From: Gammaproteobacteria bacterium
Lineage (GTDB): Bacteria; Pseudomonadota; Gammaproteobacteria; SZUA-229
Direction of reading: 5' to 3'
Assembly: GCA_029882395.1 (NCBI GenBank)
Contig: JAOUKT010000002.1
Span: 50,165 to 114,164 of the forward strand
Length of the DNA: 64,000 nucleotides
Part shown: positions 5,646 to 40,643 of the stretch, piece by piece
How positions within the stretch are numbered: position 1 is the first letter of the stretch
How the letters are laid out: the number at the start of each line of letters is the position of its first letter
Program-made: the position numbers and the translations under genes
The notes under the pieces: model-generated
What the model was told of the DNA's origin: nothing
The model's input: the letters and a program-made list of their open reading frames with translations, nothing else
Databases searched by the model: none

Positions 5646-7250
5646 TTGCTTGATAACCAGCTACCGGCATTGAGTTTGTATTCAAAATTTCATCAACGTT
5701 TAAAGGCTTTTAATTCGACCGCCTCGGCTGATATCTTTCAGTGTGGCGGTATCGGGCTAGAGAAAGAGAGCCTGCGGGTTTCCTCAGCCGGTACACTGTC
5801 ACAAAAGCCGCACCCTGTTGCGCTGGGTTCTGCTTTGACTCACCCCAGTATTACCACCGATTATTCAGAAGCATTACTCGAGTTTATTACGCCGCCTTTC
5901 AAAGACGTACTGGAGTCGATGGATTTCTTGCGTGATACCCAGCAGTTTGTCTATAGCCAGCTTGAAGACGAGTTGTTGTGGTCGGCCAGTATGCCTTGCG
6001 TGGTGGCCGGAGAGACCAGTATTCCACTGGCGAAATACGGTAATTCAAATCTGGGGCAGATGAAAACAGTTTATCGGCGAGGGCTGGGTCACCGTTATGG
6101 CCGGGTCATGCAGGTGATTGCAGGCGTGCATTACAATTATTCATTCAAAGATGAGTTCTGGTCACATTATCAGCAGTTAGAGTCCGATACCGGTAACGCA
6201 CAGGATTTTATTTCTGCGCGTTATTTTGATGTGCTGCGTAACCTGCAACGTTATGGCTGGTTAATTTCCTATCTTTTTGGTGCCTCGCCTGCCATATGCA
6301 AATCATTTCTTAATGGCCAGCAAACTAATTTGCAAGAATTTAATGAAAACTCATTTTATGAACCCTACGCAACCTCGTTACGGCTGGGTGAAATTGGGTA
6401 TCGGAATTCGCGCGAAAGCGAAGTTGGCATAACGGCCAATTACAATAGTCTGCAGGAATATATAGAGGCGCTAAGGTGTGCGATCGAAACGCCTTATGCT
6501 GGTTACGAGGACATCGGTATTGTAAAGGACGGCGTCTACCAGCAGCTTAATGCCAACATCCTGCAGATTGAAAATGAGTATTACAGCAGTGTCCGTCCCA
6601 AACAAATATTACAGGGGCTGGAAAAGCCGGTGAATGCCTTGCGCGACCGCGGGGTGAGGTATATAGAACTGCGCTCGGTGGATATCAGTCCGTTCGACCC
6701 GTTAGGCGTTAATGAAGACCAGCTTCGTTTTATTCAGGTGTTTATCATTTTTTGTTGTTTGCAGCAGAGCCCGGCTTTCGGCAGTGCTGAACGCAAAATG
6801 ATTGATGCTAATTTATTACTCACGGCGCACAGGGGGCGTGAGCCTGGCTTGATGCTGGATACACTAAAAGGCAAGCAAGAACTGAAACAATGGGCAGCTG
6901 AAATTCTTGATCAGTTAATGCCGCTGGCAGATGTGCTGGACCAGAGCCATACAGGCAGCCCTTACAAAAATGCCTGCGAAAAGCAGCTTGAATTAATAGA
7001 GCATGCTGATAAAACACCGTCGGCAATGATTTTGAATTCGATGAAAGATAATGATGAAGGTTTTTTCCATTTTTCCAAACGCATGTCGGATAAACATCAT
7101 CAGTATTTCAATAACCTGCCGGTTATCAAAGAGCGGCAGTCGCATTTTCAGGGCTTAGCTAAAGAGTCATTGTTAAAACAGCAGGCGATTGAAGCGGCGG
7201 ATCAGCAATCATTTAGTGAGTTTCTACAGATGTATTTTGATCGCTGCTAG
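5646..7250 (+). CDS. gshA: Glutamate--cysteine ligase
   Basis: GLEKESLRV...HPVALGSALTHPSITTDYSEALLEFITPP matches the conserved enterobacterial-type GshA N-terminus. Length about 530 aa. Start codon is TTG. Confidence 0.9.
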   Translation: MLDNQLPALSLYSKFHQRLKAFNSTASADIFQCGGIGLEKESLRVSSAGTLSQKPHPVALGSALTHPSITTDYSEALLEFITPPFKDVLESMDFLRDTQQFVYSQLEDELLWSASMPCVVAGETSIPLAKYGNSNLGQMKTVYRRGLGHRYGRVMQVIAGVHYNYSFKDEFWSHYQQLESDTGNAQDFISARYFDVLRNLQRYGWLISYLFGASPAICKSFLNGQQTNLQEFNENSFYEPYATSLRLGEIGYRNSRESEVGITANYNSLQEYIEALRCAIETPYAGYEDIGIVKDGVYQQLNANILQIENEYYSSVRPKQILQGLEKPVNALRDRGVRYIELRSVDISPFDPLGVNEDQLRFIQVFIIFCCLQQSPAFGSAERKMIDANLLLTAHRGREPGLMLDTLKGKQELKQWAAEILDQLMPLADVLDQSHTGSPYKNACEKQLELIEHADKTPSAMILNSMKDNDEGFFHFSKRMSDKHHQYFNNLPVIKERQSHFQGLAKESLLKQQAIEAADQQSFSEFLQMYFDRC

Positions 7251-9121
7251 ATTGTTAGCGTTTTTTTTTGTTCGTGATGAGCTGGCAGCGTAACAAAAAA
7301 CGTACTGCCGAATCCGTATTCACTTTCAAACCTTATTTGTCCCTGCATTTTTTCAACCAGCTTTTTGGTAATTGTCAGGCCTATGCCGCTGCCTTCAATT
7401 TTTCCGGGGTTAGCAAGTGCGCGTGAAAAAGGAGCGAAAATTGTATCTTTTAGTTCGTCTTTTATGCCAATGCCGGTATCTTTAATGCTGAGCTGGTACT
7501 CGCATTGATTTATAAGCCGCAGATCGATGGTTATCAGTCCCTTTGGTTTGTTGTATTTGATTGCGTTACTGATTAAGTTTATGCAAATTTGTTTCAGGCG
7601 CTGTCTGTCAGCCATGACAGGGCATTGGCCAGAGGACAGATGCCTGATAGTGACACTGTGCTGGTTGGCAATGGGTTTAACTAAGCCTATGCAGTCGATT
7701 AATATCTCATTCCAGTTCAGGACTTCCATAGTGCTTACATCTTTTCCTGATTCGATTTGAGACAAATCAAGGATTTCATTAACCAGTGATAACAGGTGTT
7801 TGCCAGCGGTTAAAATTTCGCCGGTGCTGTCAAGGATTTCAGGGTTGTTGTGGGCCTCGAGTCTGACTAGCTGGCTGTAGCCCAATATGGCGTTTAAGGG
7901 TGTGCGGATTTCATGGCTCATTTGTGACAGAAATTCAGATTTTGCATTGTTAGCATGCTCAGCAATAAGCTTCGCGCGCGCCAGCTGCTGTTCGGTTTGT
8001 TTGTGCTGCTGGATTTCATAATGTAATTTGCTGGTTCTTTCTTCAACCAGTTCTTCCAGCTGTTGCTGGTGCTGGTAAAGTGCTGTTTTTGAGTTGGCGA
8101 GCTTGCGGTTAATGGAAAACAAATAAAGTGTATAAACGAGAATGGCAATCAAAAAACCGATGCAAAGAAAAATTAACTCTGTTTCTTCATGCCATAGATT
8201 GCTAAGCGTGATGTGACGGTATTTGATATCAGCAATCAATTGATTGACTTCACTGTAATCAAGTGGTGCCTGCCAGTTAATATACCTGCCGTCAATGGCT
8301 GCCTTTGAATCCGCTTCTATCTCAAGCAGGGCATGAAAAACTTTGTTAGACAGTATGCTGTCAACATGACCAAGTACAGAAAACGGCCATTCCGGGTAAA
8401 GCCTTGTGCTATGAATACTGGAAAGCTTATCTTGCTGTTGATTTATAATTTTAAGCTTATTGGGGGCCAGATTGTTTTCTGCAATTAACTGCTCGATGAT
8501 GCTGCTTCTGACGACACCAATATCGACTGTTTTGTTGAGAACGGCATTGATAACAGACTGGTGGGAATTGTCATCGCTGAATTTAACATCGCTGCTGTCT
8601 TCATAAGGGTCGATGCCATGAAATAATAATTCCCTATAGACCATTTTCCAGCCGCCAAACGCTTCGGGGTGAACGCCCATGATGCTTTTGTCTTTTATAT
8701 CACTCAGAGTATTGATATCGGCATTGTCAGAATGGGTGAAAATAACGCTGGAGTAAAAGCTCGAGGCTAAACCATCGGCTTGTTTTTTGTTGAGGGTTAA
8801 AATGCGGGTTGCGCCGTAGCGTTTATTAAGGTCGGCATAAGCCAGAGGGGAGGTCAGTACAAAGTCAATGTTTTTATTTTTTACGCTGCGCCGCATTTTT
8901 GCGAAATCGATAATAGGAACTAGTGAGAAATGATAACCAGGAATTTTTTGGCTTAAGGCGGCGGCAGTTGCAGCCCACTGATGGTTCGCTTTTTCAATAC
9001 CGTTAATGGCGCGCACACCGATGCGTAACTCCTGGTCTTTATTTTGAGCTGATAATGTCGTTGTCACCAGCAATAATGAAATAAAGAAAAAACGTTTCAG
9101 GCGAGCAAGAATCTGTCTCAT
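7247..9121 (-). CDS. Sensor histidine kinase with periplasmic PhnD/SsuA-like solute-binding domain
   Basis: Signal peptide (start moved to the internal Met MRQILARL...), PBP-like periplasmic domain, one TM helix, coiled coil, HisKA H-box FLSQMSHEIRTPLNAILGYSQL, HATPase G-boxes. No receiver domain. Confidence 0.8.
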   Translation of the reverse strand: MRQILARLKRFFFISLLLVTTTLSAQNKDQELRIGVRAINGIEKANHQWAATAAALSQKIPGYHFSLVPIIDFAKMRRSVKNKNIDFVLTSPLAYADLNKRYGATRILTLNKKQADGLASSFYSSVIFTHSDNADINTLSDIKDKSIMGVHPEAFGGWKMVYRELLFHGIDPYEDSSDVKFSDDNSHQSVINAVLNKTVDIGVVRSSIIEQLIAENNLAPNKLKIINQQQDKLSSIHSTRLYPEWPFSVLGHVDSILSNKVFHALLEIEADSKAAIDGRYINWQAPLDYSEVNQLIADIKYRHITLSNLWHEETELIFLCIGFLIAILVYTLYLFSINRKLANSKTALYQHQQQLEELVEERTSKLHYEIQQHKQTEQQLARAKLIAEHANNAKSEFLSQMSHEIRTPLNAILGYSQLVRLEAHNNPEILDSTGEILTAGKHLLSLVNEILDLSQIESGKDVSTMEVLNWNEILIDCIGLVKPIANQHSVTIRHLSSGQCPVMADRQRLKQICINLISNAIKYNKPKGLITIDLRLINQCEYQLSIKDTGIGIKDELKDTIFAPFSRALANPGKIEGSGIGLTITKKLVEKMQGQIRFESEYGFGSTFFVTLPAHHEQKKTLTI

Positions 9122-9216
9122 TAGGCTTATATTGTTATAGTTGTATCTAAATTGAATGAGTCTGATTGTATAGAGACTCATATACCTTGTAAAGAATAAG
9201 GTTATTAGCAGGTGTT

Positions 9217-9678
9217 ATGAGTTGTTATTGTGGTTCGGGTGAGTTGTTTGAAGTGTGCTGCCAGCTGCGTCATCTTGTGCATGAGCGGGCTGATACGGCT
9301 GAAAGTTTAATGCGCGCTCGCTATAGTGCTTATGTGCTGGGAATGACTGAGTTTCTAAACAGAACATGGCTGGATGGAGACGGTGTTGAATCAGCAGCTG
9401 ACCTAAAGGTGGTCAATTGGTGCGGGCTTGACATAGTGTCGACCCGAGCAGGCATGAAGTCTGATAGCGAAGGCTGGGTAGAATTTAAAGCGTATTTTAT
9501 TGAACATGACAGGCTTTTTTGTTTGCATGAAAACAGCCACTTTGTACAAAACCAGGGGCACTGGTTTTATAAAGAGGGAGAGTTATATCGGCATGAACCG
9601 AAAGAGCTCGCTCTTAATGCGGAGTGCCCGTGTGGCAGCGGTAAAAAATACAAGCGCTGCTGTCGTCGGCAGTTGTAA
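9217..9678 (+). CDS. ychJ: YchJ family protein (UPF0225) with SEC-C zinc motifs
   Basis: N-terminal CYCGSG and C-terminal CPCGSGKKYKRCC SEC-C motifs. Confidence 0.8.
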   Translation: MSCYCGSGELFEVCCQLRHLVHERADTAESLMRARYSAYVLGMTEFLNRTWLDGDGVESAADLKVVNWCGLDIVSTRAGMKSDSEGWVEFKAYFIEHDRLFCLHENSHFVQNQGHWFYKEGELYRHEPKELALNAECPCGSGKKYKRCCRRQL

Positions 9679-10065
9679 AGTTAAAATTGATCTAGCGCAT
9701 ATTTAATCAAATAATTGTTTGTTAACATTAGTTTTAGCAAATTAACTAATGCCAATAGATGCCTTTATTAAATAGTTATATTGTTAATTTCATTTATTAT
9801 TCTATTATTCTATTATTCTATACTTATCTTTCAACCCCTATTCTATAAGCCTCTTAGCCACTGTAAGGCATTTATAATATTTTATATGGGATGATAAAAT
9901 ACTTTTTATTGCCGTTTTCATGATCTTTGTAGGCAGCGCGCTAAAAATCTATTATTCTGCGATGGCTTAAAGTTTGAAATACTGCATAAAAGGTATGGTA
10001 TTTGTGCTGATTATGCGTTGGATCCCTTTAAGTATAAAAAATGTTAATAATAAATGGGGGATGGC

Positions 10066-11202
10066 ATGTCAGTACTACTCCGTACAATTAAGGCGATAAG
10101 CCTAATGTTCGTTAGTACCGAACTGTTTGCGGCAGCGCAAATGGACCTGACACCTGGTGTGACTGCAATCAGTCAAGAGGTTTACGAGCTCCACACATTA
10201 ATATTGTGGATCTGTGTAATCATCGGTGCCGGTGTCTTCGGTGTAATATTTATATCTATATTCAAACATAGAAAATCTAAGGGCGCCGTTGCGGCGAACT
10301 TCCACGATAACATGACTGTTGAAGTCTTATGGACTGTTATTCCGTTTTTGATATTGATTGGTATGGCTATTCCAGCTGCCAAGACATTAATTAAAATGGA
10401 ATCGCCAGCTGATGATGCAGAAGTGACGATTAAGATCACAGGTTATCAATGGAAGTGGAACTACGATTACATGCATGAAGGTTTTAATTACTTCAGTAAT
10501 CTGGCTCAAAGCAGCAAAGACGCGGTCAATTCAGATAATCCAAAAGACCGGGAAGGTATTAATTATCTGTTAGACGTGGATAACCGTATGGTTATTCCTG
10601 CAAATAAAAAGGTTCGTTTTCTGATGACGTCAAATGATGTTATCCACTCCTGGTGGGTGCCTGATTTTGCGGTTAAGAAAGATGCGATTCCAGGTTACAT
10701 CAACGAAGCATGGACGATTGTACCGAAAGAAGGTGTCTATCGCGGCCAGTGTGCCGAGCTTTGTGGTAAAGACCACGGCTTTATGCCGATTGTTGTTGAG
10801 GTTAAATCAGAGGCTGATTACGCGGCCTGGGTTGCTGAGAAAAAAGGTGTTGCCGCAGCGGCCGCAGCTGGTGACAGCAAAACCTGGACAATGGATGAGT
10901 TAATGGCAAAAGGTAAGGATATCTACAATGCCTCTTGTGCCGCTTGTCATATGGCAGAAGGTCAGGGTATACCTGCTGCAGGTTTCCCGGCACTTAAAGC
11001 TAGTGCTATTGCAACAGGGCCTGTTGCTGCTCACTTAGATATCGTTATCAATGGTAGTAAAGTAAATCCTGCCATGGCTGCTTATGGTGCTCAGATGTCT
11101 GATGCCGATCTTGCAGCAGTAATTACTTACGAGCGAAATGCTTGGGGTAACAATACTGGTGATGCCGTTCAACCTGCCGATGTAAAAGCGGCTAGAAAAT
11201 AA
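10066..11202 (+). CDS. coxB: Cytochrome c oxidase subunit II with fused C-terminal cytochrome c domain (caa3-like)
   Basis: CuA site HSWWVPDF...CAELCGKDHGFMP. C-terminal CAACH heme-c motif. Start placed at the second ATG, after GGGGGA. Confidence 0.9.
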   Translation: MSVLLRTIKAISLMFVSTELFAAAQMDLTPGVTAISQEVYELHTLILWICVIIGAGVFGVIFISIFKHRKSKGAVAANFHDNMTVEVLWTVIPFLILIGMAIPAAKTLIKMESPADDAEVTIKITGYQWKWNYDYMHEGFNYFSNLAQSSKDAVNSDNPKDREGINYLLDVDNRMVIPANKKVRFLMTSNDVIHSWWVPDFAVKKDAIPGYINEAWTIVPKEGVYRGQCAELCGKDHGFMPIVVEVKSEADYAAWVAEKKGVAAAAAAGDSKTWTMDELMAKGKDIYNASCAACHMAEGQGIPAAGFPALKASAIATGPVAAHLDIVINGSKVNPAMAAYGAQMSDADLAAVITYERNAWGNNTGDAVQPADVKAARK

Positions 11203-11217
11203 TTGGGGGATGCTCAA

Positions 11218-12783
11218 ATGAGTGATGATCATCACGATCATAAGCCTACGGGCTTAGGCCGCTGGTTATTCAGCACCAACCACAAAGACATCGGAACGAT
11301 GTACCTATGGTTCAGCTTTATTATGCTGTTCATCGGTGGTGGTATGGCCATGATAATACGCGCCGAGTTATATCAGCCTGGTATGCAGCTGGTAGATCCG
11401 GATTTCTTTAATCAAATGACTACCTTGCACGGTCTGATCATGGTATTTGGTGTGATCATGCCAGCCTTTGTTGGTTTTGCGAACTGGTTAGTGCCAATGA
11501 TGATTGGTGCACCGGATATGGCATTGCCACGTATGAACAACATGAGCTTCTGGATACTTCCCTTTGCTTTTGGTACGTTGCTTAGCACGCTGTTTATGGA
11601 AGGTTCTGCGCCGAACTTCGGCTGGACTTTCTACGCACCGCTATCAACCACATACGGGCCGGCATCGACGGACTACTTTATCTTTGGTGTTCACTTAATG
11701 GGTATCTCATCCATTATGGGTTCGATCAACGTTATCGTAACCATCCTGAATATGCGTGCGCCTGGCATGACATTAATGAAGATGCCTATCTTTGTCTGGA
11801 CATGGTTAATCACCGCTTTCTTATTGATCGCGGTTATGCCGGTGCTTGCAGGTGTGGTAACAATGATGTTAACTGACCGTAACTTCGGTACTTCGTTCTT
11901 CGAAGCCGCAGGTGGTGGTGATCCGGTTATGTTCCAGCATGTATTCTGGTTCTTCGGTCATCCGGAAGTTTACATCATGATCTTGCCTTCATTTGGTATC
12001 ATCTCGCAGATCATTCCTACGTTTGCACGTAAGAAACTGTTTGGTTACAGCTCAATGGTGTATGCAACCGCATCGATTGCGATTTTGTCATTCATCGTCT
12101 GGGCGCATCACATGTACACAGTCGGCATGCCATTGGCAGGCGAACTGTTCTTCATGCTGGCAACCATGCTGATCGCAGTACCAACGGGTGTTAAGGTCTT
12201 TAACTGGACGGCAACTATGTGGAAAGGTTCGCTCACTTTCGAAACACCTATGTTGTTCTCGGTTGCTTTCATTATCCTGTTCACCATCGGTGGTTTCTCA
12301 GGTCTGATGATGTCAATCACGCCAGTGGATTTCCAGTATCACGATACTTACTTCATCGTGGCTCACTTCCATTACGTTCTGGTTACCGGTGCATTGTTTG
12401 CGATCTTCGCAGGTGCGTATTACTGGCTGCCTAAATGGACCGGTAACATGTATGACGAAACACTGGGTAAAGTCCATTTCTGGATTTCACTGGTGTCGGT
12501 TAATGTCCTGTTCTTCCCAATGCATTTCTTAGGTCTGGCGGGCATGCCTCGTCGTATTCCTGATTACGCATTGCAGTTCACTGACTTTAACCAGATGGCG
12601 TCAATCGGTGCATTTGTATTCGGTGGTATTCAGCTGTTATTCCTTTACATCGTGATCAAGTGTATCCGCGGTGGTGAGAAAGCAACTGACCAGGTTTGGG
12701 AAGGCGCGGAAGGTCTTGAGTTTGAGCAATTGCCATCTCCAGCACCTTTCCATAGCTTCACTCAAGCTCCGGAAGTGAAATAA
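11218..12783 (+). CDS. coxA: Cytochrome c oxidase subunit I
   Basis: Canonical COX1 sequence (GGGDPVMFQHVFWFFGHPEVY, HHMYTVGM). Confidence 0.95.
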   Translation: MSDDHHDHKPTGLGRWLFSTNHKDIGTMYLWFSFIMLFIGGGMAMIIRAELYQPGMQLVDPDFFNQMTTLHGLIMVFGVIMPAFVGFANWLVPMMIGAPDMALPRMNNMSFWILPFAFGTLLSTLFMEGSAPNFGWTFYAPLSTTYGPASTDYFIFGVHLMGISSIMGSINVIVTILNMRAPGMTLMKMPIFVWTWLITAFLLIAVMPVLAGVVTMMLTDRNFGTSFFEAAGGGDPVMFQHVFWFFGHPEVYIMILPSFGIISQIIPTFARKKLFGYSSMVYATASIAILSFIVWAHHMYTVGMPLAGELFFMLATMLIAVPTGVKVFNWTATMWKGSLTFETPMLFSVAFIILFTIGGFSGLMMSITPVDFQYHDTYFIVAHFHYVLVTGALFAIFAGAYYWLPKWTGNMYDETLGKVHFWISLVSVNVLFFPMHFLGLAGMPRRIPDYALQFTDFNQMASIGAFVFGGIQLLFLYIVIKCIRGGEKATDQVWEGAEGLEFEQLPSPAPFHSFTQAPEVK

Positions 12784-12793
12784 GGAAACGACA

Positions 12794-13369
12794 ATGACTG
12801 ACCAGAACCAACAAAAAAACGAAAATAGCAAAGTGGTTAAAAAACTACTGCTGGCAACCGTCTTTATGTTCGGTTTTGGTTATGCATTGGTTCCCCTGTA
12901 TAACATTTTTTGTGACATAACCGGTTTGAATGGAAAAACCAGTGATCAAGCTGCTGTCGTTAAAGCGGCAGATATTGATAATAATCGCTGGGTAACGGTT
13001 GAGTTCATTGGTAATCTCAATGACAACATGCCGTGGAAATTCAGGCCGGCTATTTCAAAAATGAAAGTACGCCCGGGAGAACCAAGTCGAATCAATTATG
13101 TCGCTAAGAACGTATCATCCAGTTCAATTACTGGAAATGCCGTTCCTAGTGTATCGCCTGGACAGGCTGCAAAATATTTTACAAAGACAGAATGTTTTTG
13201 TTTTACGCAGCAAGAATTAAAGTCGGGTGAAGAAAAGGAAATGCCTGTAGTGTTTATCGTCGATAAAAATTTACCGAAACGCATAAATACGGTGACACTT
13301 TCTTATACATTCTTTAATAGTCCAGTGGCAAAGAAAGAGAAATCTTCTGTGTCGATGGCAAAAAAATAA
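12794..13369 (+). CDS. ctaG: Cytochrome c oxidase assembly protein Cox11/CtaG
   Basis: LVPLYNIFCDITG N-terminus and the CFCF copper-binding motif. Confidence 0.85.
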   Translation: MTDQNQQKNENSKVVKKLLLATVFMFGFGYALVPLYNIFCDITGLNGKTSDQAAVVKAADIDNNRWVTVEFIGNLNDNMPWKFRPAISKMKVRPGEPSRINYVAKNVSSSSITGNAVPSVSPGQAAKYFTKTECFCFTQQELKSGEEKEMPVVFIVDKNLPKRINTVTLSYTFFNSPVAKKEKSSVSMAKK

Positions 13370-20236: not shown

Positions 20237-21601
20237 ATGACATTAGAACAGCTGCTGTTGATTTCAATTACCATTTTGAGTGGCGTGATGCTGATAATAT
20301 TAATTAGTCAGCTGAGAAGGCAGGATGTCATGTCAGGCAGAGCTGATGAGCAAGCGCGGCAGTTCGAGATATTAAGGGCCCTTGTTGAGCAAAAAATTTC
20401 ACATATGCTCGAGTCAATGACAGCGTTTCAGAATCAGTTAAAAATCAACGAAATCGAAAGCCGTGAAAGTCAGAGTAAAAGAATTTCAAATCTAGAAAAA
20501 GAACTGAGTGGCAAGTTTAATGAATTCAAAACTGACATGGCTGAGCTGCTGTTTAAAAATAATGAGTCTAACCAGAAAAATCAGGCAGAATCACTAAAAA
20601 CGCTCAACCAAACACTGGTTGAAAACAGCAAACAGCAAAATGAACAGATTGCCAAATCGCTTAAATCGTATGCTGACGAGTTTGGTAAACGCGTCGACAG
20701 CCTGACCGATAAGACAGATTTCAGATTAAAAGAAATCAGCGGCCAGGTTGAGAAAAAGCTGGGAGAAGGTTTTGATAAGACCACAGAGACCTTTGCCAAT
20801 GTGCTCAAGCGACTGACATTGATTGATGAGGCGCAGAAAAAAATTACCGAGTTGTCGGGTAATGTGGTGAGCCTGCAGGAAGTGCTGGCCGATAAGCGTT
20901 CACGAGGTGCCTTTGGTGAGGTGCAGCTATCGGCTCTGGTGGCGAATGTGATGCCGGCGCAAAGTTATGCGCTGCAATTTGGGTTATCAAATAATACACG
21001 GGTTGATTGCATGCTATTCTTGCCACAGCCGAGTGGCAATATCGCCGTTGATTCCAAGTTCCCACTAGAAAGTTATCAAAAGCTGAGCGCCTTTGATGTC
21101 ACAGAGGCGGATAAACTCAAAGCTGAAAAGCAATTTAAGGCAGATATTAAGAAGCACATCAAGGATATAGCGGACAAATACATAATCCCGGGTGAAACGG
21201 CTGAGGGCGCGGTGATGTTCATACCGGCAGAGTCTGTGTTTGCAGAGATTCATGCGCATCACCCTGATTTGGTGGAAGAATCACAAAAGAAAAGAGTCTG
21301 GATGGTGTCGCCTACAACGCTGATGGCCGTATTAACAACCGCCAGAGCGGTTATCAAGGACGATGCAACACGCCAGCAGGTTCACTTGATTCAGGAGCAT
21401 TTATCCAAGCTATCGGTCGAGTTTGGCCGTTTTGGCAGCCGCATGGAGAACCTGTCACGGCATATTTCGCAGGCACATAAAGATGTCGGCGAGGTAAAAA
21501 TCACCGCTGATAAGATTAAAGGTCAATTTATTAGTATAGAAAAAGTGGAACTGGACGATATAACTAAAGAAATCGGTGTTTTAGACAGTAATGCTAAGTA
21601 A
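20237..21601 (+). CDS. rmuC: DNA recombination protein RmuC
   Basis: N-terminal TM helix, long coiled coil, conserved RmuC C-terminal core (RGAFGEVQL...VDCMLFLP). Confidence 0.9.
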   Translation: MTLEQLLLISITILSGVMLIILISQLRRQDVMSGRADEQARQFEILRALVEQKISHMLESMTAFQNQLKINEIESRESQSKRISNLEKELSGKFNEFKTDMAELLFKNNESNQKNQAESLKTLNQTLVENSKQQNEQIAKSLKSYADEFGKRVDSLTDKTDFRLKEISGQVEKKLGEGFDKTTETFANVLKRLTLIDEAQKKITELSGNVVSLQEVLADKRSRGAFGEVQLSALVANVMPAQSYALQFGLSNNTRVDCMLFLPQPSGNIAVDSKFPLESYQKLSAFDVTEADKLKAEKQFKADIKKHIKDIADKYIIPGETAEGAVMFIPAESVFAEIHAHHPDLVEESQKKRVWMVSPTTLMAVLTTARAVIKDDATRQQVHLIQEHLSKLSVEFGRFGSRMENLSRHISQAHKDVGEVKITADKIKGQFISIEKVELDDITKEIGVLDSNAK

Positions 21602-21678
21602 TATTACTGGTTTGGGAAATATGAGCTATAGTTTCAATACTTTATAAAAATGTTAGCTATTCCATGGTTTTAGATTAG

Positions 21679-22857
21679 GTGTCTGAGAGAAAGTCTGTTT
21701 TGAAAATTATTGTATCAGTTATCATTTTAACGATTGCACTTTCTGCTCTGCTGCTAAGCGTTAATATCGCGTGGTTGCAGCTTGTCATAGCGCTGCTGAT
21801 GTCTGCCGGTTATGCCCTGGCTGTGTCGCTGTATTATCGTCAGCAGCTTCAGCAACAAAATGAAAAAGTACCCGATGAAGAATTTACAGATCAGGTGGGC
21901 AAGCTTGTGCACCAGTTTTGTGATTTATCCATTGAAGTAGACCCATCGATGGAAGCGATTTCCCAGATCAAAAAAATTGTTAATGATTCGGTGATCAAGC
22001 TCAATAACAGCTTCCTGGCGTTAGGTAGCTTATCGGATCAGCAAAGCAATGAGCTCGAAGTCCTGGTTAAACATTTTTCAAGTGATGAAGAGGGCGACTC
22101 GGTCTCTTTCAGAAAATTTGCCGTCGAGCTGGAGGTGGTACTTAAGCAGTTTGTTGACATAATCGTTGATGTTAGTGATAAAGGTGTTGATGCGGCATAT
22201 AAAATGCAGGATATGATTTCTGTGATGGATGAAGTGTTTGACCGGCTTATTGGTGTTCAAAAAATCGCATCGAAGACAAATTTACTGGCACTAAACGCTG
22301 CAATAGAAGCGGCCAGGGCCGGTGAAGTGGGCCGCGGTTTTGCTGTGGTTGCAGACGAGGTCAGAGAATTATCCCAACAAACCAGCATTTTGAATGAAGG
22401 TGTGCAGGAAAGGGCCAGGGCGGCTAAAGAAGGCCTGATATCGCTGAATGATGTCATTGGCGAGATAGCACAAATGGATATGAGTGCTACACTGAAAGCG
22501 AAAGACAATATTAATGACATGTTGACAAGTATCGACTCCGTTAACACAGAAGTGGGCACGGTTATCGACAATACGGCGAAAATTGCCTTTGATATCCGTG
22601 GCCATGTCTCAACGGCCGTGATGGCCTTGCAATATGAAGACGCAGTTGTACAGCTGTCGACACATATTGAAAACCTTCAAAATGGTATTAACGAGAAGAT
22701 AAGCGTTTTTCAGTCGAACTCAGCGACACCGGTTAGTCTTGCACAACTAATAAGTATCAATGAATCGATTCAGAAAGTGGATAGAGAAGTAACAATGGCG
22801 CTGGAAGATAGCATTAGATCAACCTCTGTTGATTCTGGTGAAGTGGATTTATTTTAA
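21679..22857 (+). CDS. Methyl-accepting chemotaxis protein with minimal sensor (two TM helices, almost no periplasmic loop)
   Basis: Highly conserved MCP signalling hairpin [34 protein letters not shown] start. Confidence 0.8.
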
Positions 22858-22872
22858 TATAGAGAAAGCATT

Positions 22873-23178
22873 ATGGGTATAAGTAATCGTTTTATAAAAG
22901 AAGCCGGAGAATATCAGATAGCAGTCACTGGCAAGTTTGATTTTTCGCTGTTAAATGAGTTTCGTGATGCTTATGAAAGTGCACCGACAGACGCTAAAAA
23001 ATATGTGATTGATATGCGTGCCGTGGACATGATTGATAGTTCGGCTTTAGGCATGTTATTAAAAATGAAAAGGGCACTGAATCTGGCCGATGGCGAGCTG
23101 GATATCATTAATTGCAGCACTAATGTTAAAAAGATACTGATGATAGCCAAATTTGAACTGATGTTCTCAATTCAGTAA
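22873..23178 (+). CDS. STAS-domain anti-sigma-factor antagonist (HsbA-like)
   Basis: STAS fold motif IDSSALGMLL and small size. Sits immediately upstream of the RsbU/RsbW-like fusion. Confidence 0.75.
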   Translation: MGISNRFIKEAGEYQIAVTGKFDFSLLNEFRDAYESAPTDAKKYVIDMRAVDMIDSSALGMLLKMKRALNLADGELDIINCSTNVKKILMIAKFELMFSIQ

Positions 23179-23180
23179 AT

Positions 23181-24830
23181 ATGAAAATACTTGTCGTTGA
23201 TGATATAGATAAAAACCGGTCTATTCTCGACCGTTATCTGACAGCCAAGGGTTTTGATGTGATTACGGCCTCCTCAGGTGCCGAGTCGATCGTCATAGTA
23301 CATCAGGAAGAGATTGACCTCGTGCTGATGGATGTGAAAATGCCGGATATGGATGGTTATGAGGCCACCCGTCAGATCAAAGACATAGCATCGGAAAATT
23401 ACCTGCCCGTTATTTTTGTCACCGCCTTATCAGAAGAAGAAGCATTAGAAGAAGCGCTGGCGGCAGGTGGTGATGATTTTATAAGCAAGCCAATCAGTTT
23501 TGGTGTGTTGTTGTCAAAAATCAATGCGCATTCCCGAATCAGGGAACTTCATATTGAAGTCAACCGAAAAAATAATGAACTAATCACGCACAATATTCGA
23601 CTTAATCGGGAGCATGAACTGGTCTCGCATTTCTTTGACCAGGCACAAAAATTTTGTTTTTATGACGAAAAGATAGTTCGTTCATTCAGCATTCCAATGA
23701 GTACTTTCAGTGGCGACACGATACTGGTTGTGCGCAGGCCGCATGGCGGGCTGGCGATATTAATCGGTGATTTCACCGGCCACGGTCTATCTGCCGCCGT
23801 TGGCACGCTGCCTGTCTCGCAGGTTTTTTTCCAAATGGTGGAAGAGAATGCATTTATTGGTGATATTGCAAGAGAGCTTAATAAACAGGTGAATCTGTTG
23901 TTGCCGGTAGAAATGTTTTTTGCGGCATCGATTATCGAGCTTTCAGCCAAAGGTGATCGCCTGATGATCTGGCATGGCGGCATGCCAAATGCCTATTTGC
24001 TTGACCAGAAGACGAATGAGTTAACCACAATCAAAAGTGCACACCTGCCATTAGGTGTTCGTGAACAGGAAGAGTTTGATGATTCTGTTCAGCTGTTTTA
24101 TGTCAACCAGCATCATAAGTTAGTAAGCTTTACCGACGGCTTGTCCGAGGCAGAGAATACTGATCTGGAAATGATTGAGGCAGACATGATTGAAGATGCC
24201 ATAGTGGGCAGTGATGATATTATCAAATCAGTTATGGCGCTTTACCAGAGTTACAGTGAAGGCATCGCGCAATCAGATGACGTCTCCATTATCGAGCTGT
24301 CGTGTTTGCCGCTTGAGGCAGAAATAAAACCAGCGAATCCCGCTAACATCAAGGCCACCGTGCCATGGAATATCGAGCTTGTTGTTAATGACTATTTGCT
24401 AAAAAATGATGTTGTACAAAATATCATAGAATTAATCGGTGACTATACGCCATTAAAAGATCACAAGGGTATAATTCACACGCTGTTAACAGAGCTTTAT
24501 AGCAATGCATTGGATCATGGTATTTTAGGCTTAGAGGGTGATGCTAAAAATAGCGTCGAGGCTTTTGACCGCTATTACCTCGAACGTCATAAACGCCTGG
24601 ATTCATTAAAAGACTCATGCCTCACAGTAAAACTCAGTTATTTACCAGAAGAGCAGACGGCAGTGCTTAAAATCATAATGTCTCATAACGGCCGAAGCTT
24701 TAACCTTGATAACATAAAAGCCGCAGATGATGATATGCATGGCAGAGGCATGGACCTGATCAATGCCATATGTGAAGAGGTTGATTACAGTGATGAAGGA
24801 CGCTGTGTTAGCGTCGCATATCGTATCTAA
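23181..24830 (+). CDS. Response-regulator receiver + PP2C (SpoIIE-type) phosphatase + HATPase anti-sigma kinase fusion (HsbR-like)
   Basis: REC (VVDDIDKNR...LVLMDVKMPDMDG), PP2C (GDFTGHGLSAAVG), and C-terminal RsbW-like N-box and G-box (ELYSNALDHG, MHGRGMDLI). Confidence 0.8.
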   Translation: MKILVVDDIDKNRSILDRYLTAKGFDVITASSGAESIVIVHQEEIDLVLMDVKMPDMDGYEATRQIKDIASENYLPVIFVTALSEEEALEEALAAGGDDFISKPISFGVLLSKINAHSRIRELHIEVNRKNNELITHNIRLNREHELVSHFFDQAQKFCFYDEKIVRSFSIPMSTFSGDTILVVRRPHGGLAILIGDFTGHGLSAAVGTLPVSQVFFQMVEENAFIGDIARELNKQVNLLLPVEMFFAASIIELSAKGDRLMIWHGGMPNAYLLDQKTNELTTIKSAHLPLGVREQEEFDDSVQLFYVNQHHKLVSFTDGLSEAENTDLEMIEADMIEDAIVGSDDIIKSVMALYQSYSEGIAQSDDVSIIELSCLPLEAEIKPANPANIKATVPWNIELVVNDYLLKNDVVQNIIELIGDYTPLKDHKGIIHTLLTELYSNALDHGILGLEGDAKNSVEAFDRYYLERHKRLDSLKDSCLTVKLSYLPEEQTAVLKIIMSHNGRSFNLDNIKAADDDMHGRGMDLINAICEEVDYSDEGRCVSVAYRI

Positions 24831-24835
24831 CGGCG

Positions 24836-25060
24836 TTAAAGACCGGATAAGGCATACTGCACTATAGTGACCAGTACAGTGATGAAAAGCGCGGCAAAGA
24901 TTAGTCCGCCCAGAATATAATGCCAAAGTTTGCCCTTATTGAAGTCTCTTTGCCGGTTTTTTTCTGTCTGAACACCAAACATGGCCGCTAATACACTGCC
25001 AAATGTCTGAAGAAATGAAACATTATCTGTCTCTTTGGTATCATCTTTTTTTACTTTCAT
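24836..25060 (-). CDS. DUF2970-like small membrane protein
   Basis: 74 aa with a single C-terminal TM helix and the QTFGSVLAAMFGVQ motif typical of DUF2970. Confidence 0.5.
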   Translation of the reverse strand: MKVKKDDTKETDNVSFLQTFGSVLAAMFGVQTEKNRQRDFNKGKLWHYILGGLIFAALFITVLVTIVQYALSGL

Positions 25061-25148
25061 GACTCGCCCGGGTTTTACTATCAGTATCGATCAAGGTACG
25101 ATTATGCCTTAAACTAAATCAGAGTAACAGCCAGCCTAGGGAGAGCCA

Positions 25149-25505
25149 ATGAATAAGCTACTATTGATAAGTGTGTTGCTGATGAGTCAGCAGGTTATGG
25201 CGAATGAAGTAAAAATCGTTGATGTAAAGCTTGTTAAGAAAAGTGCTGAGCACTACCGGGTGGATGTGACTTTATTGCACGGCGATACAGGCTGGGATCA
25301 TTATGCGGACGGCTGGGAAATACTGGATCAGAATAAAAAGCGGATTGGGCAGCGAGTATTGGGCCATCCACATGTTAATGAGCAGCCTTTTACCCGTTCA
25401 CTGCAGAATGCTGAGATAGCAAAAGCTAACCAGCATATTTATATCCGGGCGCATGATAAAATCCATGGCTACAGTAAATTATATAAAGTTAAATTAAACA
25501 AATAG
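25149..25505 (+). CDS. Small secreted hypothetical protein (His-rich, signal peptide)
   Basis: Signal peptide MNKLLLISVLLMSQQVMA, followed by a roughly 95-aa mature protein of unknown family. Confidence 0.45.
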   Translation: MNKLLLISVLLMSQQVMANEVKIVDVKLVKKSAEHYRVDVTLLHGDTGWDHYADGWEILDQNKKRIGQRVLGHPHVNEQPFTRSLQNAEIAKANQHIYIRAHDKIHGYSKLYKVKLNK

Positions 25506-29469: not shown

Positions 29470-29766
29470 ATGGACGAAGACAATAAGATAAGCGATCTGC
29501 GCAGTAATATCCGGCATCCAATAGAAGTGCCTATCAGGCTGATAGATGAAAATGGTGCCGAACATAAAGCCGTCTCGGGAAATGTCAGTGACTGTGGATT
29601 GTATCTAAGCATCACGCTGGAAAAACGCCCGGCCATAGAAAGCATTGTACAGGTTCAGGTGATGACACCTCTGGGTGATGGCAGTGATGCGCCGATTAAC
29701 CGGGCACGTGTTATGCGATATGGTGCCGATGGTGTGGGCCTGATGTTTCTGCTTGAAGAGAAATAA
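29470..29766 (+). CDS. PilZ-domain protein (putative c-di-GMP binding)
   Basis: RxxxR-like NIRHP motif, then DCGLYL. Small beta-barrel size. Confidence 0.45.
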   Translation: MDEDNKISDLRSNIRHPIEVPIRLIDENGAEHKAVSGNVSDCGLYLSITLEKRPAIESIVQVQVMTPLGDGSDAPINRARVMRYGADGVGLMFLLEEK

Positions 29767-33848: not shown

Positions 33849-36800
33849 ATGTCAAATGGAACGATTAAATTAGGTGTGATGCCGCCGCTGACCGGTTTAG
33901 TGGGCATTTATGGTTCAGAAATTGTGCATGCTGCAGAAGTCGCTTGTCAGGAAATTAATGAGAATGGCGGTGTACTGGGTAAACCACTGGAACTGGTCAT
34001 AGAAGATGACGGCAGCCTGCCGCAAAGTGCAGTCGCAGCGGCTAAGAAACTGGTTGTTGAGCATCAGTGTAGTGCGATGATAGGAAACCTGCTCTCTAAT
34101 TCACGCATTGCCGTGGCCTATCAGGTCGCTGAGCCGAGCAGGGTGCCGCTAATTAATTTCTCATTTTATGAAGGCAGCATTCTCAGCCGTTATTTTTTCC
34201 ATTTTGGCGCCCTGCCCAATCAGCAAATAGATAAAATGATTCCATACATGTTTAAACAGTATGGCTCGCGCATGTTCTTTGCCGGAAATAATTATGAATG
34301 GCCGCGTGGCTCGATACATGCGGCTAAAAAAGTGCTGACAGCAATAGGCGGCGAAATAGTAGGTGAAGAGTATTGCCCGATAGGTGTCGCAGCGGAGCAG
34401 ATTGAGCAATTACTGGATCAGCTTGAGGCGGCCAAACCCGATGTTTTTGTGCCCTATTTTGCCGGCAATGACCAGGTTTTGCTATTGACACGGTTTACAG
34501 AAAGAGGCCTTAAAAAACGCATGGCCGTGGTGATGGGTCATTATGACGAAATGATGGCGAGCCAGTTACCTGCTGAAGTGCGTGAGGGCTTCTATTCAAG
34601 CAATACTTATTTCATGACCATTGATTCTGAGCAAAACCGGAATTACCTGCAACGCCTGGCGAGGCTGGCGGATGTTGACGGCATCTGGCCACAAGGTAAT
34701 GGCATACTGACAAACTTTGGTGAAGCTACCTATGCCTGTGTAAAAGCATTCGCTGTGGCTGCCAACTCAGCTGGCTCGGTGAACGCAGAAGACCTGGTAG
34801 ACGCGTTAAAAAATATAAACATATCGTCGCCTCAGGGCATATTAACTATGAACCCTGAGCACCATCATGCAACCGTTAATACGTACCTTTCGCAATGTCA
34901 GTCTGATGGACAGTTTAAAATCATTGAACGTTTTGGTGCCATCGAAGCGGCGATACCTGAGCGTTATAATCATCAGCGTATTACCGATCAGGCAACCGTT
35001 GAAGATGATATTCGACTTCAGGCACGGATACTGGAGCAAATGTCAGATGGTGTCTTGTTAATCAGTTCGAGTGACAGCTCAATTATCTATTCCAATGCGG
35101 GCGCCGAGCGCATCCTTGGCTACGCTGGCGGAGAAATGTCAGGGTTTTTATTGTCACAAATAATGGCTGACAATTTAGAAAACACGCAGACGAGTGAGAG
35201 CATCGTAAAACAATTGACCCAGAAAGGAGAGTGGCAGGGCGAAATTAGTTATGCGAAAAAACAAGGTGACGCTATCTGGTGCTTTGCCACAGTGACGACA
35301 TTCACACACCCGGTTTACGGTGAAGTATGGCTGGCTGTTAACCGGGATATTACTGAGGAAAAAAAATCAAAAAATGAAATTGAACAAAACCGGGCACGAT
35401 TCGAATCAATGTTTGAAGCAATTCCGGATGCTGTCATTTACGCCGATACAGACAGAAAGATAAGGCTGGTCAATAAAGCCGCGGTTAAGTTATTCGGATA
35501 TGAAATATACGAGCTAGAGGGCAGGTCAACTGACATTCTTTATGCCGATACAGAGGATTTCAAAGAACAGGAAAAGCGGCGATATACCAGTCATAGTAAA
35601 ACAGCTTCTCCGCGTTATGAAATGAACTACCGGTGCAAAGATGCAAGCGTATTTTCGGGTGAAACACTGGCCACGGCTGTGAGCTCATCGGCTGGAGAAA
35701 TACTGGGATATTTAGGCATTATTCGCGATGTGTCAGAAAGGAATCAGATCGATGCCATCTTTCGATCACTGGCCACCGGCGCGTCGGGTTTAAAATTCGA
35801 TGCCTTTATCAACGATGCACTGTATCGTTTAACAGAAATATACAAAAGTCCGTTTGCTTTTGTCGGGCAGTTATTAACCGATGGCAAACACGTGAAAACA
35901 CTGGCCGTGTATGCAAACGGTAGGATAGTCGATAACTTCGAATATGCGTTAAAAGGCTCTCCTTGTCAGGATGTTATGGATCATAAAAAAGAAATAATCC
36001 CTAAAGATGCATCGAAACTGTACGCCGGTGACAAGCTACTGGTGGATATGCAGATTGAAAGTTATTTTGGTTTACCACTGATTGCATCGGATAATTCAGT
36101 TATCGGTATTTTATCTATCATGGACACCAGGCCTGTAGAAGTGAGTGATTGGGCCAGATCTATACTGGAAGTGTTTGCCACGAGAATTGCCGTCGAGCTG
36201 GAAAGGGAGATTTCAAACCGGGAGCTGCGACAGCACAGAGAACATCTGCAGGAACTGGTAGAGCTGCGCACAACAGATTTGATCATGGCCAGAGATGAGG
36301 CCGAGAAAGCCAATGCGGCCAAATCAGAATTTTTATCGCACATGAGTCATGAGTTGCGTACGCCAATGAATGCGATACTGGGCTTTGGCCAGTTATTAGA
36401 AATGGATTCCGATACCTTTGACGAAACCCACAAGGCAAATATTCAAGAAATCCTTGATGCGGGTGGGCATCTGTTAACACTGATCAATGAAGTGCTGGAC
36501 CTGAGCAGAATTGAGTCGGGTAAGTTAGATATGTTGATGAAAGATATTGCTGTTGATGAGGTGTTATCCCAGTGTTTGAAGCTGGTAGCTAGTCATGCGG
36601 ACGAACGACAGATTGAAATCATAGACCACTTAAGTGGTAACGGTTATCATGTTAAGGCCGATTTGACGCGTTTGAAACAGGTCTTTGTCAATTTGCTCTC
36701 GAATGCGATTAAATACAACCGAAGCCAGGGTGCTGTCACACTGGATGCTGAGCTGACTGAAAATAATTATCTGCGCATCAGCGTATCGGATAATGGTGAG

Positions 36801-36992
36801 GGCATATCAAAGCAGGATATCGACAAATTATTCAAACCGTTTGAGCGCCTCAATGTCGTGGACAATGTTGAAGGTACCGGCATAGGGCTGGTGATTACAA
36901 AACACCTCGTTGGTTTAATGGGCGGCAATATAGGTGTCAAAAGTGAGCCCGGTAATGGCAGCGTTTTCTGGATAGAGTTGCCGCGTTGTTGA
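33849..36992 (+). CDS. Cytoplasmic sensor histidine kinase: type-1 periplasmic-binding-protein-like (LivK/AmiC-like) domain + 2 PAS + GAF + HisKA + HATPase
   Basis: No signal peptide or TM helix. PBP1-like N-terminal domain (LGVMPPLTGLVGIYG...), H-box FLSHMSHELRTPMNAILGFGQLL, and HATPase motifs at the C-terminus. Confidence 0.85.
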   Translation: MSNGTIKLGVMPPLTGLVGIYGSEIVHAAEVACQEINENGGVLGKPLELVIEDDGSLPQSAVAAAKKLVVEHQCSAMIGNLLSNSRIAVAYQVAEPSRVPLINFSFYEGSILSRYFFHFGALPNQQIDKMIPYMFKQYGSRMFFAGNNYEWPRGSIHAAKKVLTAIGGEIVGEEYCPIGVAAEQIEQLLDQLEAAKPDVFVPYFAGNDQVLLLTRFTERGLKKRMAVVMGHYDEMMASQLPAEVREGFYSSNTYFMTIDSEQNRNYLQRLARLADVDGIWPQGNGILTNFGEATYACVKAFAVAANSAGSVNAEDLVDALKNINISSPQGILTMNPEHHHATVNTYLSQCQSDGQFKIIERFGAIEAAIPERYNHQRITDQATVEDDIRLQARILEQMSDGVLLISSSDSSIIYSNAGAERILGYAGGEMSGFLLSQIMADNLENTQTSESIVKQLTQKGEWQGEISYAKKQGDAIWCFATVTTFTHPVYGEVWLAVNRDITEEKKSKNEIEQNRARFESMFEAIPDAVIYADTDRKIRLVNKAAVKLFGYEIYELEGRSTDILYADTEDFKEQEKRRYTSHSKTASPRYEMNYRCKDASVFSGETLATAVSSSAGEILGYLGIIRDVSERNQIDAIFRSLATGASGLKFDAFINDALYRLTEIYKSPFAFVGQLLTDGKHVKTLAVYANGRIVDNFEYALKGSPCQDVMDHKKEIIPKDASKLYAGDKLLVDMQIESYFGLPLIASDNSVIGILSIMDTRPVEVSDWARSILEVFATRIAVELEREISNRELRQHREHLQELVELRTTDLIMARDEAEKANAAKSEFLSHMSHELRTPMNAILGFGQLLEMDSDTFDETHKANIQEILDAGGHLLTLINEVLDLSRIESGKLDMLMKDIAVDEVLSQCLKLVASHADERQIEIIDHLSGNGYHVKADLTRLKQVFVNLLSNAIKYNRSQGAVTLDAELTENNYLRISVSDNGEGISKQDIDKLFKPFERLNVVDNVEGTGIGLVITKHLVGLMGGNIGVKSEPGNGSVFWIELPRC

Positions 36993-37054
36993 AAAGTACA
37001 GATAAAAAAAGAGTTAGGTTTATAGCATCATAAAAACATTACTGGTTAAATAAA

Positions 37055-37420
37055 ATGAAAAAAGTAGTTTATATAGAAGATAACCCCGCGAATCAACGAC
37101 TGGTAACACAGGTGTTTAAGCGCCTGCCCAAGCTGGAACTGCTGAATGCGGATGAGCCGATATCAGGTCTGGAATTGATTGAGAAACATCAACCGGACCT
37201 GATATTGCTGGATATTAATCTGCCGGGAATGGATGGTTTTGAAGTGTTTAAGCGTCTCAGAGAAAAACAAGGTTGCGAAAATACCCCTGTTATCGCTATC
37301 AGTGCCAACGCCATGCAAGAAGATATTGACAAGGCGCTGGCGCTTGGCTTTGATGACTATATTGTGAAACCGGTTAATATCAGTGCTTTGCTGCAGGTTT
37401 TAGAAAATACATTGCAATAA
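37055..37420 (+). CDS. Single-domain response regulator (CheY-like)
   Basis: VVYIEDNPANQ...LILLDINLPGMDG...KP motif. 121 aa. Confidence 0.85.
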   Translation: MKKVVYIEDNPANQRLVTQVFKRLPKLELLNADEPISGLELIEKHQPDLILLDINLPGMDGFEVFKRLREKQGCENTPVIAISANAMQEDIDKALALGFDDYIVKPVNISALLQVLENTLQ

Positions 37421-40635: not shown

Positions 40636-40643
40636 TCGCGGCG

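Follow-up and report, generated by a model that had tools for sequence, protein, structure and literature searches.

The systems closest to the locus described here are partner switches in which a STAS-type anti-sigma-factor antagonist works with a regulator made of a receiver domain (REC), a PP2C phosphatase domain and a GHKL domain. In Shewanella oneidensis, the genes SO_2117-2119 encode McpA, CrsA and CrsR and are co-transcribed with the che1 genes, as determined by reverse-transcription PCR (PMC9855816). CrsR and CrsA form a partner switch that sequesters and releases the sigma factor RpoS, and HsbR and HsbA of Pseudomonas aeruginosa do likewise (PMC6482189). A block of this kind is also known from F7 chemosensory clusters. 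The published order of stage 1 clusters is anti-sigma antagonist, cheY, cheA, two cheW, aer2-like, cheR, cheD, cheB, mcpA-like, anti-sigma antagonist and serine phosphatase, and at stage 2 the last three genes, moving together, have shifted from the cluster's 3' end to its 5' end (PMC7184735). Here we analysed a stretch of 64,000 nucleotides (64 kb, hereafter the window) from a gammaproteobacterium (GenBank assembly GCA_029882395.1, contig JAOUKT010000002.1, positions 50,165 to 114,164 of the forward strand), in which three such genes stand together. Taken from the list of open reading frames (ORFs), they are the following:

21679-22857, plus strand: ORF1, McpA-like methyl-accepting chemotaxis protein (MCP), 392 amino acids (aa)
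22873-23178, plus strand: ORF2, CrsA/HsbA/SpoIIAA-type STAS anti-sigma-factor antagonist, 101 aa
23181-24830, plus strand: ORF3, receiver + PP2C + GHKL regulator of CrsR/HsbR architecture, 549 aa

The trio is co-directional, with gaps of 15 bp between the MCP and STAS genes and 2 bp between the STAS and regulator genes, exactly as given by the initial annotation of this DNA. SO_2117-2119 show the same order, i.e. a transmembrane-anchored McpA-like MCP, then a STAS antagonist, then a REC-PP2C-GHKL protein. The receptor tails are alike (EIELF in Shewanella, EVDLF in the window), and the regulator has 549 aa against 565 aa in CrsR. However, the Shewanella trio heads the che1 operon (F7, stage 2) and is followed by cheY1-cheA1-cheW1-aer2-cheR1-cheD1-cheB1, whereas that of the window is followed by genes for a DUF2970 protein and HrpA. 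The tail of stage 1 F7 clusters in Vibrio (VCA1088 region of V. cholerae, and V. aquimaris) is another close counterpart. Using tblastn on a plasmid collection, we recovered the stage 1 order exactly on chromosome II of Vibrio aquimaris (locus L089; other compared loci are numbered likewise). Identity between this Vibrio trio and that of the window is 29% for the MCP over its full length (E 1e-43), 41% for the STAS protein and 30% for the regulator; unlike in the window, the Vibrio trio directly follows cheR-cheD-cheB of a complete F7 cluster. A literature search on VCA1086-1088 returned no matches. The initial annotation had called the upstream MCP unusual, a view that has to be given up since the order mcpA-like, antagonist, phosphatase was already published for stage 1/2 F7 clusters (PMC7184735). 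The block is the known McpA-like/CrsA-like/CrsR-like unit in a new arrangement detached from F7 genes, with a G1 box that is non-canonical but widespread. By analogy, we consider it fairly probable that the trio is a detached, free-standing copy of the mcpA-like/antagonist/phosphatase-kinase block of F7 edges, and that it would act as a CrsR/CrsA-type switch controlling a sigma factor.

On its 5' side, the trio is preceded by a cox/cta cluster and by genes for a DUF2189 protein, a Rieske protein and RmuC. On its 3' side come a convergent gene for a DUF2970 protein, ending 5 bp from the regulator stop, a gene for a secreted 118-aa protein with no Pfam match, and hrpA. Synteny of this neighbourhood extends to relatives with regulators 80%, 65% and 60% identical to that of the window. 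The trio presumably forms one operon, and the limits of the transcription unit are drawn from synteny. A promoter and terminator scan of 21300-25300 found no terminator between the trio genes or in the rmuC-MCP gap, and promoter-like sites were at chance level, with none in that gap. In an alignment with four relatives, conservation of the region upstream of the MCP gene is confined to close relatives. Among the Pfam-scanned ORFs of the window, we found no sigma factor, as the initial annotation had noted for a cognate one, and no che gene, CheA, CheW or Hpt. Sigma and che genes are likewise absent from the gene calls of a syntenic relative (L001, cox region), and scanning the entire window for Rfam families and tRNAs gave no matches. 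A review states that McpA-like receptor genes always neighbour an F7 cluster (PMC7534058). Within the 64-kb window, this generalisation does not hold at the present locus, which thus qualifies the published statement.

Free-standing trios were found in five unrelated neighbourhoods, namely that of the window clade (L001-L004 and L009), L005, L006, L007 and L094, with intergenic gaps of at most 32 bp throughout. No F7 che gene lies within 10 kb of the trio in L001-L007 or L094. In four of the five unrelated contexts, no che gene of any kind was found in the 10 kb to each side of the trio. L007 deviates in part: cheV and cheR are located 4-6 kb upstream, and the genes flgAMN, cheV and cheR, which together span 4-8 kb upstream, are reminiscent of the Pseudomonas hsb locus. 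The L005 regulator is 42% identical to that of the window, and the L006 trio belongs to a 6.37-Mb genome. In L094 (a 266-kb metagenomic contig, positions 3355-13170), 12 bp separate the MCP gene from same-strand upstream genes, which encode a phosphonate-binding protein, a hybrid histidine kinase, a receiver protein and a REC-Hpt-REC-EAL protein. In addition, at least 17 further metagenomic contigs occur in both the regulator and the MCP match lists of the window clade (paired by identical lengths). The block stands as an autonomous, operon-like unit in several lineages, every other F7 gene being gone from its neighbourhood. That the trio and the receptor tail persist without neighbouring F7 genes suggests that the functional partner of the receptor is the partner switch rather than an F7 array.

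A chance adjacency of an MCP gene to an HsbR-like pair was also considered and is ruled out by its recurrence in many unrelated contexts. Two of the free-standing loci have further neighbours of their own: in L005, genes for a phosphonate-binding protein and a large PAS-rich protein adjoin the trio, and further downstream in L094 a second set encodes an HDOD-SpoIIE protein, a HATPase_c_2 protein and a STAS protein.

F7 clusters similar to that of Vibrio were recovered in L011, L037, L042, L090, L091 and L093, and the F7 set (cheY, cheA, cheW, a gene for an aer2-like 36H receptor, cheR, cheD and cheB) is also clustered with the locus at L020 and L028. A STAS gene and a regulator gene without McpA are found in the F7 clusters of L020, L025 and L028, while STAS-regulator pairs stand alone in Pseudomonas, Hahella and L008. 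A scan of genome contigs returned mostly Pseudomonas HsbR-type loci and no Shewanella. Most of the MCP homologues from cultured organisms are located in F7 clusters. This last distribution is one reason to consider that the window trio might be a relocated block still serving a complete F7 cluster (cheY-cheA-cheW-aer2-cheR-cheD-cheB) elsewhere in the genome, whose CheA would phosphorylate the receiver as proposed for Che1-CrsR. The three genes are indeed on record as having moved together from stage 1 to stage 2 (PMC7184735). Against this stand the window, which holds no che gene, and the free-standing contexts, four out of five of which have none within 10 kb; the fifth, L007, has only cheV and cheR, 4-6 kb upstream. 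We regard such continued service to a distant F7 cluster as a real possibility with somewhat less than even chances, to which the receptor itself brings evidence on both sides (see below).

Several F7-linked or related loci depart from the usual arrangement. In Thiobaca trueperi (L091 10001-14090), cheB lies between the mcpA-like and STAS genes and the regulator (411 aa) has no GHKL domain, and no receiver match was recorded for the Sessilibacter regulator (L090 11576-13219). In Alteromonadaceae M269 (L092 10001-11251), the mcpA-like gene ends the F7 cluster, with no STAS or regulator gene after it. Chromatium weissei (L031 8199-11683) carries tandem full-length REC-PP2C-GHKL paralogues of 585 and 577 aa, upstream of which BLAST found no STAS gene.

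The receptor has three features of interest here, the first located by a hydropathy scan and an alignment of trio-linked MCPs, and the second by alignment:

21700-21837, plus strand: membrane hairpin, two hydrophobic helices (about residues 8-28 and 31-53) joined by a loop of 2-3 residues
22312-22341, plus strand: receptor hairpin tip, residues 212-221, within a conserved block of 28 residues
22840-22854, plus strand: C-terminal EVDLF tail, an McpA-like signature

ORF1 matches the Pfam family MCPsignal (E 2.7e-20). Its GTG start at 21679 has an alternative, TTG at 21700, which is preceded by GAGAGAAAG and gives a protein of 385 aa. The NCBI annotation of the MCP also has 385 aa, and the true start may be this TTG. 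The scan and the alignment bear out the earlier description of a sensor-poor MCP with two adjacent transmembrane helices: neither revealed a periplasmic sensor or a HAMP domain, and a cytoplasmic coiled coil directly follows the helices. The tip region, the usual contact site for CheA and CheW, is conserved in every aligned trio-linked MCP. The two arms comprise about 23 and 25 heptads by simple counting, and a regular-expression search for the methylation consensus gave no match, which is a weak negative.

At position 2, the EVDLF tail lacks the aromatic residue found in the CheR-tethering pentapeptide. All MCPs that we found encoded directly upstream of a STAS-regulator pair end in x[VIA]xLF, while the other MCPs at those loci end in EWEEF or otherwise. 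Among the 120 best MCP homologues, 113 end strictly in [ED][VIL][ED]LF and the remaining 7 in a close variant. These homologues, which include a Vibrio metoecus protein, range from 278 to 420 aa, most of them from 375 to 420 aa, and the shorter ones (278-347 aa) are probably truncated. McpA-like receptors have been defined by an uncategorised or 44H heptad class, a transmembrane region, the lack of a CheR-tethering pentapeptide and a conserved C-terminus (PMC7184735), with tails such as EVELF (PA0180, VCA1088), EIELF (SO_2117), DIDLF and TVELF (Supplementary Table 12 of the same paper). Because of its tail, its membrane-hairpin topology and its similarity to the F7-linked Vibrio receptor, the window MCP can be assigned by sequence to the McpA-like receptors.

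McpA-like genes co-evolve with F7 genes, yet the receptors physically join the F6 array, and both their role and that of the ancestral stage 1/2 F7 system have been called unclear and puzzling (PMC7184735, PMC7534058). These properties bear on the idea of a block still working for a remote F7 cluster in opposite ways: the fully conserved tip implies a CheA/CheW partner and so favours it, whereas the membership of F6, not F7, arrays in the species studied argues against it.

For the STAS protein and the regulator, we retained the following features:

23038-23040, plus strand: codon of Ser56 in DSSALGMLL of the STAS protein, predicted phosphorylation site (alignment)
23187-23522, plus strand: receiver domain of the regulator (Pfam Response_reg, E 5.4e-28)
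23331-23333, plus strand: codon of Asp51, receiver phosphate acceptor (alignment)
23742-24299, plus strand: PP2C/SpoIIE phosphatase domain (Pfam SpoIIE, E 2.6e-28)
24363-24827, plus strand: C-terminal GHKL (Bergerat-fold) anti-sigma-factor/serine-kinase-like domain (AlphaFold2, Foldseek, profile)
24492-24521, plus strand: N-box ELYSNALDHG, with E438, N442, H446 and G447 (regulator alignment A1)
24678-24701, plus strand: G1 box MSHNGRSF, with His502 in place of the adenine-binding Asp of GHKL proteins and the second Gly lost (alignment)
24738-24758, plus strand: G2-like box HGRGMDL, with G521-R522-G523 (regulator alignment A1)

ORF2 matches the STAS family (Pfam, E 4.5e-11) and, under the curated cut-off, TIGR00377 ant_ant_sig (E 4.3e-10). 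Its Ser56 is invariant in all 16 aligned STAS proteins, whether from free-standing trios, F7-linked trios or Pseudomonas HsbA loci. In the regulator, D7, D8, D51 and K103 of the receiver are invariant in alignment A1, and D51 is present in all 119 homologues. So is the Asp set of the PP2C domain, i.e. D179 (upstream of the Pfam match), D197-FTGHG, D319-G and D366-D367. The N-box is invariant in alignment A1, with E438 and N442 conserved in 119/119 homologues. The same alignment shows G521-R522-G523 to be invariant as well; among the 118 homologues with His or Asp at G1, G521 and G523 are always present and R522 is found in 115.

The C-terminal domain is the least evident of the three in Pfam, its HATPase_c_2 match staying sub-threshold (E 0.0022, 18.5 bits, the cut-off being 27.4 bits). 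Because of this weak call, the domain was modelled. The AlphaFold2 model of residues 390-549, built on an alignment of 61 sequences, has a mean pLDDT of 91 and a pTM of 0.87. Its best Foldseek matches in the PDB are Bergerat/GHKL anti-sigma factors, first of all LvrC of Leptospira (9qih, E 2e-7), then SpoIIAB (1th8, 1l0o, 1tid, 1til), RsbW (6m37) and UsfX (8ih8, 8jzt). A single-sequence search of the PDB with this domain gave marginal matches only, while a profile made from 16 C-terminal domains retrieved LvrC with an E-value of 1.6e-8. By its predicted fold, the C-terminal domain is clearly of the SpoIIAB/RsbW GHKL type, weak as it is in Pfam. Pfam, fold and profile thus agree with the HsbR/HsbA-type architecture proposed by the initial annotation, a STAS protein followed by a REC-PP2C-GHKL protein. 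The profile searches it had suggested gave clear matches for SpoIIE and STAS and one below threshold for HATPase_c_2. As for the kinase boxes, whose absence it had named as counting against its reading, the objection applies only in part: the N-box and the G2-like box proved invariant on alignment, while G1 (SHNGRSF) is not canonical.

In this G1 box, SHNGRSF of the window aligns with EDSGxGF of Pseudomonas HsbR-type proteins (e.g. EDSGKGF) and with KDRGAGF of LvrC, most homologues having D-x-G-x-G-F. His502 lies at the end of a beta-strand in the AlphaFold2 model, as the G1 Asp does. The His-for-Asp variant is widespread: the residue is His in 45 of the 119 homologues, Asp in 73 and Asn in one, and the second Gly is missing in 37 of the 45 His-type proteins. 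The other sites are kept in these 45 proteins, with Glu, Asn and Gly of the N-box, G521, G523 and the PP2C Asp residues present in all, His446 and R522 in 44, and each receiver residue in 44 or 45. The His-type G1 also occurs in F7-linked proteins, as EHNGEGF in Vibrio (His as in the window, with the second Gly kept, unlike in the window) and AHNGRGF in L037. Every His-type locus with visible context has an McpA-like gene upstream, and so do some of the Asp-type loci (L006, L007, L011 and L042). From these comparisons, the His-type G1 reads as a clade-level feature and not as a lesion.

The His-type C-terminal domain could also be a pseudokinase that would only bind the sigma factor and the STAS protein, any phosphorylation of Ser56 being left to another kinase. 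Kinase-inactive RsbW-type anti-sigma factors reportedly exist, one example being UsfX of Mycobacterium tuberculosis, which is among the Foldseek matches. The SHNGRSF box, the high share of homologues with the same replacement, most of them also lacking the second Gly, and the HATPase_c_2 match below the Pfam threshold would all fit with such a loss of activity. However, the retention of the N-box, G2 and PP2C residues in 44 or 45 of the 45 His-type proteins is what an intact phosphorylation cycle would predict, Ser56 is invariant in the 16 aligned STAS proteins, and the F7-linked Vibrio homologue also has His. Moreover, if CrsR of Shewanella were of the His type as well, this would make the variant competent as a kinase, given that CrsA is phosphorylated by CrsR (PMC6482189). 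We hold a pseudokinase to be unlikely.

Returning to a detached switch of the CrsR/CrsA type, its operation can be proposed from the two studied systems. The GHKL domain would sequester a sigma factor encoded elsewhere (RpoS in both of these systems) and would phosphorylate Ser56 of the STAS protein. The PP2C domain would be turned on when the phosphorylation state of Asp51 in the receiver changes, leading to dephosphorylation of the STAS protein, which in its unphosphorylated form would bind the GHKL domain and thereby cause release of the sigma factor. On the input side, the sensor-less receptor with its canonical CheA/CheW tip would most likely insert into a chemoreceptor array; McpA joins F6 arrays in Pseudomonas, Vibrio and Shewanella (PMC9855816, PMC7184735). 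The receptor might then couple the switch to the array or co-localise it there, which is the most speculative step. The receiver could obtain its phosphate from a CheA or from a hybrid-kinase/Hpt relay. A chemotaxis-like input acting on a partner-switch output is essentially the Che1-CrsR hypothesis, published and unproven, with the difference that no CheA is adjacent in the window.

Several points weigh against this proposal. With His in place of the G1 Asp and without the second Gly, kinase activity cannot be taken for granted. Both the input and the output had to be inferred, because CheA, CheW, Hpt and sigma genes are absent from the window. The likeness to S. oneidensis CrsR consists of gene order, architecture and size, the F7-linked Vibrio homologue serving as a sequence proxy, and McpA of S. 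oneidensis signals to CheA3 and affects swimming, with no effect on CrsR reported (PMC9855816). In addition, the identity of the regulator to its F7-linked Vibrio homologue (30%) is not above that to Pseudomonas HsbR-type proteins (about 32%). The placing of the window clade on the Vibrio side, with Pseudomonas HsbR apart, comes from a rough neighbour-joining tree with no support values.

In P. aeruginosa, the HptB-HsbR-HsbA system has a STAS gene followed by a REC-PP2C-GHKL gene, as in the window; HsbA is switched by phosphorylation of a serine, Ser56, and the pathway binds RpoS (PMC6482189). Unlike the window, the Pseudomonas hsb loci have no MCP gene upstream and a canonical G1 box (EDSGxGF), and the mcpA gene of P. 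aeruginosa is apart from hsb, beside the F7 cluster. Directly after hsbR, a Pseudomonas locus (L012) has an ORF with the Hpt-like motif HSFKGSS, and no hptB-type gene directly follows the window regulator. CrsR/CrsA is the closer reference for the window trio than HsbR/HsbA, because the Pseudomonas loci lack the MCP and have the hptB-like ORF, the reverse of the window.

The Pseudomonas system nevertheless raises another explanation, namely a switch of the HsbR type that takes its signal from a hybrid-kinase/Hpt phosphorelay, in which case the MCP would be an independent chemotaxis receptor, its adjacency a relic of history. HsbR receives its input from HptB (PMC6482189), the hptB-like ORF follows hsbR in Pseudomonas, and McpA of Shewanella acts in chemotaxis (PMC9855816). 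In L094, the products of the genes 12 bp from the trio include a hybrid kinase and a REC-Hpt-REC-EAL protein as well as a receiver protein, and hybrid and orphan kinases are present in the window at 40644-42467, 33849-36992 and 7247-9181. Conversely, the short-gap adjacency is kept in at least five unrelated neighbourhoods without other che genes, which speaks for selection on co-expression. There is no Hpt gene beside the window trio, and an MCP without a sensor domain or a recognisable methylation consensus makes a poor case for an independent receptor. Such a relay with an unconnected receptor seems to us rather unlikely, slightly less so than a pseudokinase.

Two-component genes are abundant in the window, at 7247-9181 (minus strand), 33849-37420 (plus strand), 39994-42467 and 52561-54768 (minus strand), and any of their kinases could be a candidate phosphodonor for the receiver of the trio. 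They comprise a histidine kinase with a phosphonate-binding domain and a Peripla_BP_6-PAS-GAF histidine kinase beside a single-domain receiver. A HisKA-HATPase-REC hybrid kinase beside a LuxR-type regulator, and a GAF-HisKA_3 kinase, also with a LuxR-type regulator, complete the set.

More distant systems share the modules in other combinations. SpoIIE/SpoIIAA/SpoIIAB and RsbU/RsbV/RsbW of Bacillus are made of the same PP2C phosphatase, phospho-serine STAS protein and GHKL anti-sigma kinase; there, however, phosphatase and kinase are separate proteins, receiver and receptor gene are lacking, and the sigma gene belongs to the operon. SypE of Vibrio fischeri reportedly carries a receiver, a PP2C domain and an RsbW-like kinase on a single chain and acts on the STAS protein SypA, with the domain order said to be kinase-REC-PP2C and the genes said to lie in a polysaccharide locus without an MCP. 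LvrC of Leptospira, the closest solved structure to the window C-terminal domain by both profile and fold (9qih), is an anti-sigma factor under the control of a receiver and was crystallised in complex with ADP-Mg (PMC13269768). It differs from the window regulator in lacking a PP2C domain and in having a canonical G1 box, KDRGAGF, and no STAS partner or MCP is described for it in that paper (PMC13269768).

The trio might even be a self-sufficient unit without any F7 or dedicated Che system, in which the EVDLF tail would dock the regulator or the STAS protein and the conserved HNG of the G1 box would mark a GHKL anti-sigma kinase whose nucleotide site is altered, an idea that we consider improbable. 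If true, the switch would be placed at the chemotaxis array or under direct control of the receptor, and this would account for the co-evolution of McpA-like genes with F7 genes even though their products sit in F6 arrays. Compared with what is published, the advance is incremental, as each of the three proteins is a member of an established family and the mechanism is drawn by analogy. The trio nonetheless provides a minimal setting in which to study the role of McpA-like receptors.

Finally, we recorded other features of the window. A dissimilatory sulfite reductase cluster with a dsrABEFHCMKL pattern occupies 55215-63576 (plus strand). It encodes two NIR_SIR subunits, DsrE, DsrE/F, DsrH and DsrC proteins, a nitrate-reductase-gamma-like membrane protein, an Fe-S/CCG protein and a pyridine-nucleotide oxidoreductase; the host is probably a sulfur-oxidising gammaproteobacterium. 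An ORF of 393 aa at 1101-2282 (minus strand) combines a fatty-acid desaturase domain (residues 11-213) with a fragment of an ISL3-family transposase (residues 270-386), and could represent a desaturase gene that an insertion-sequence remnant has cut short or become fused to. The 1180-aa ORF at 42585-46127 (minus strand) has no significant Pfam match, a weak PKD-like stretch (E 5.7e-5) being below the cut-off, and the adjoining 126-aa ORF at 46132-46512 has no Pfam match either. Between hrpA and a DUF5666 gene, at 29470-29766 (plus strand), lies an ORF of 98 aa whose L003 orthologue is recorded as a PilZ-domain protein, and its product is a possible receptor for cyclic di-GMP.

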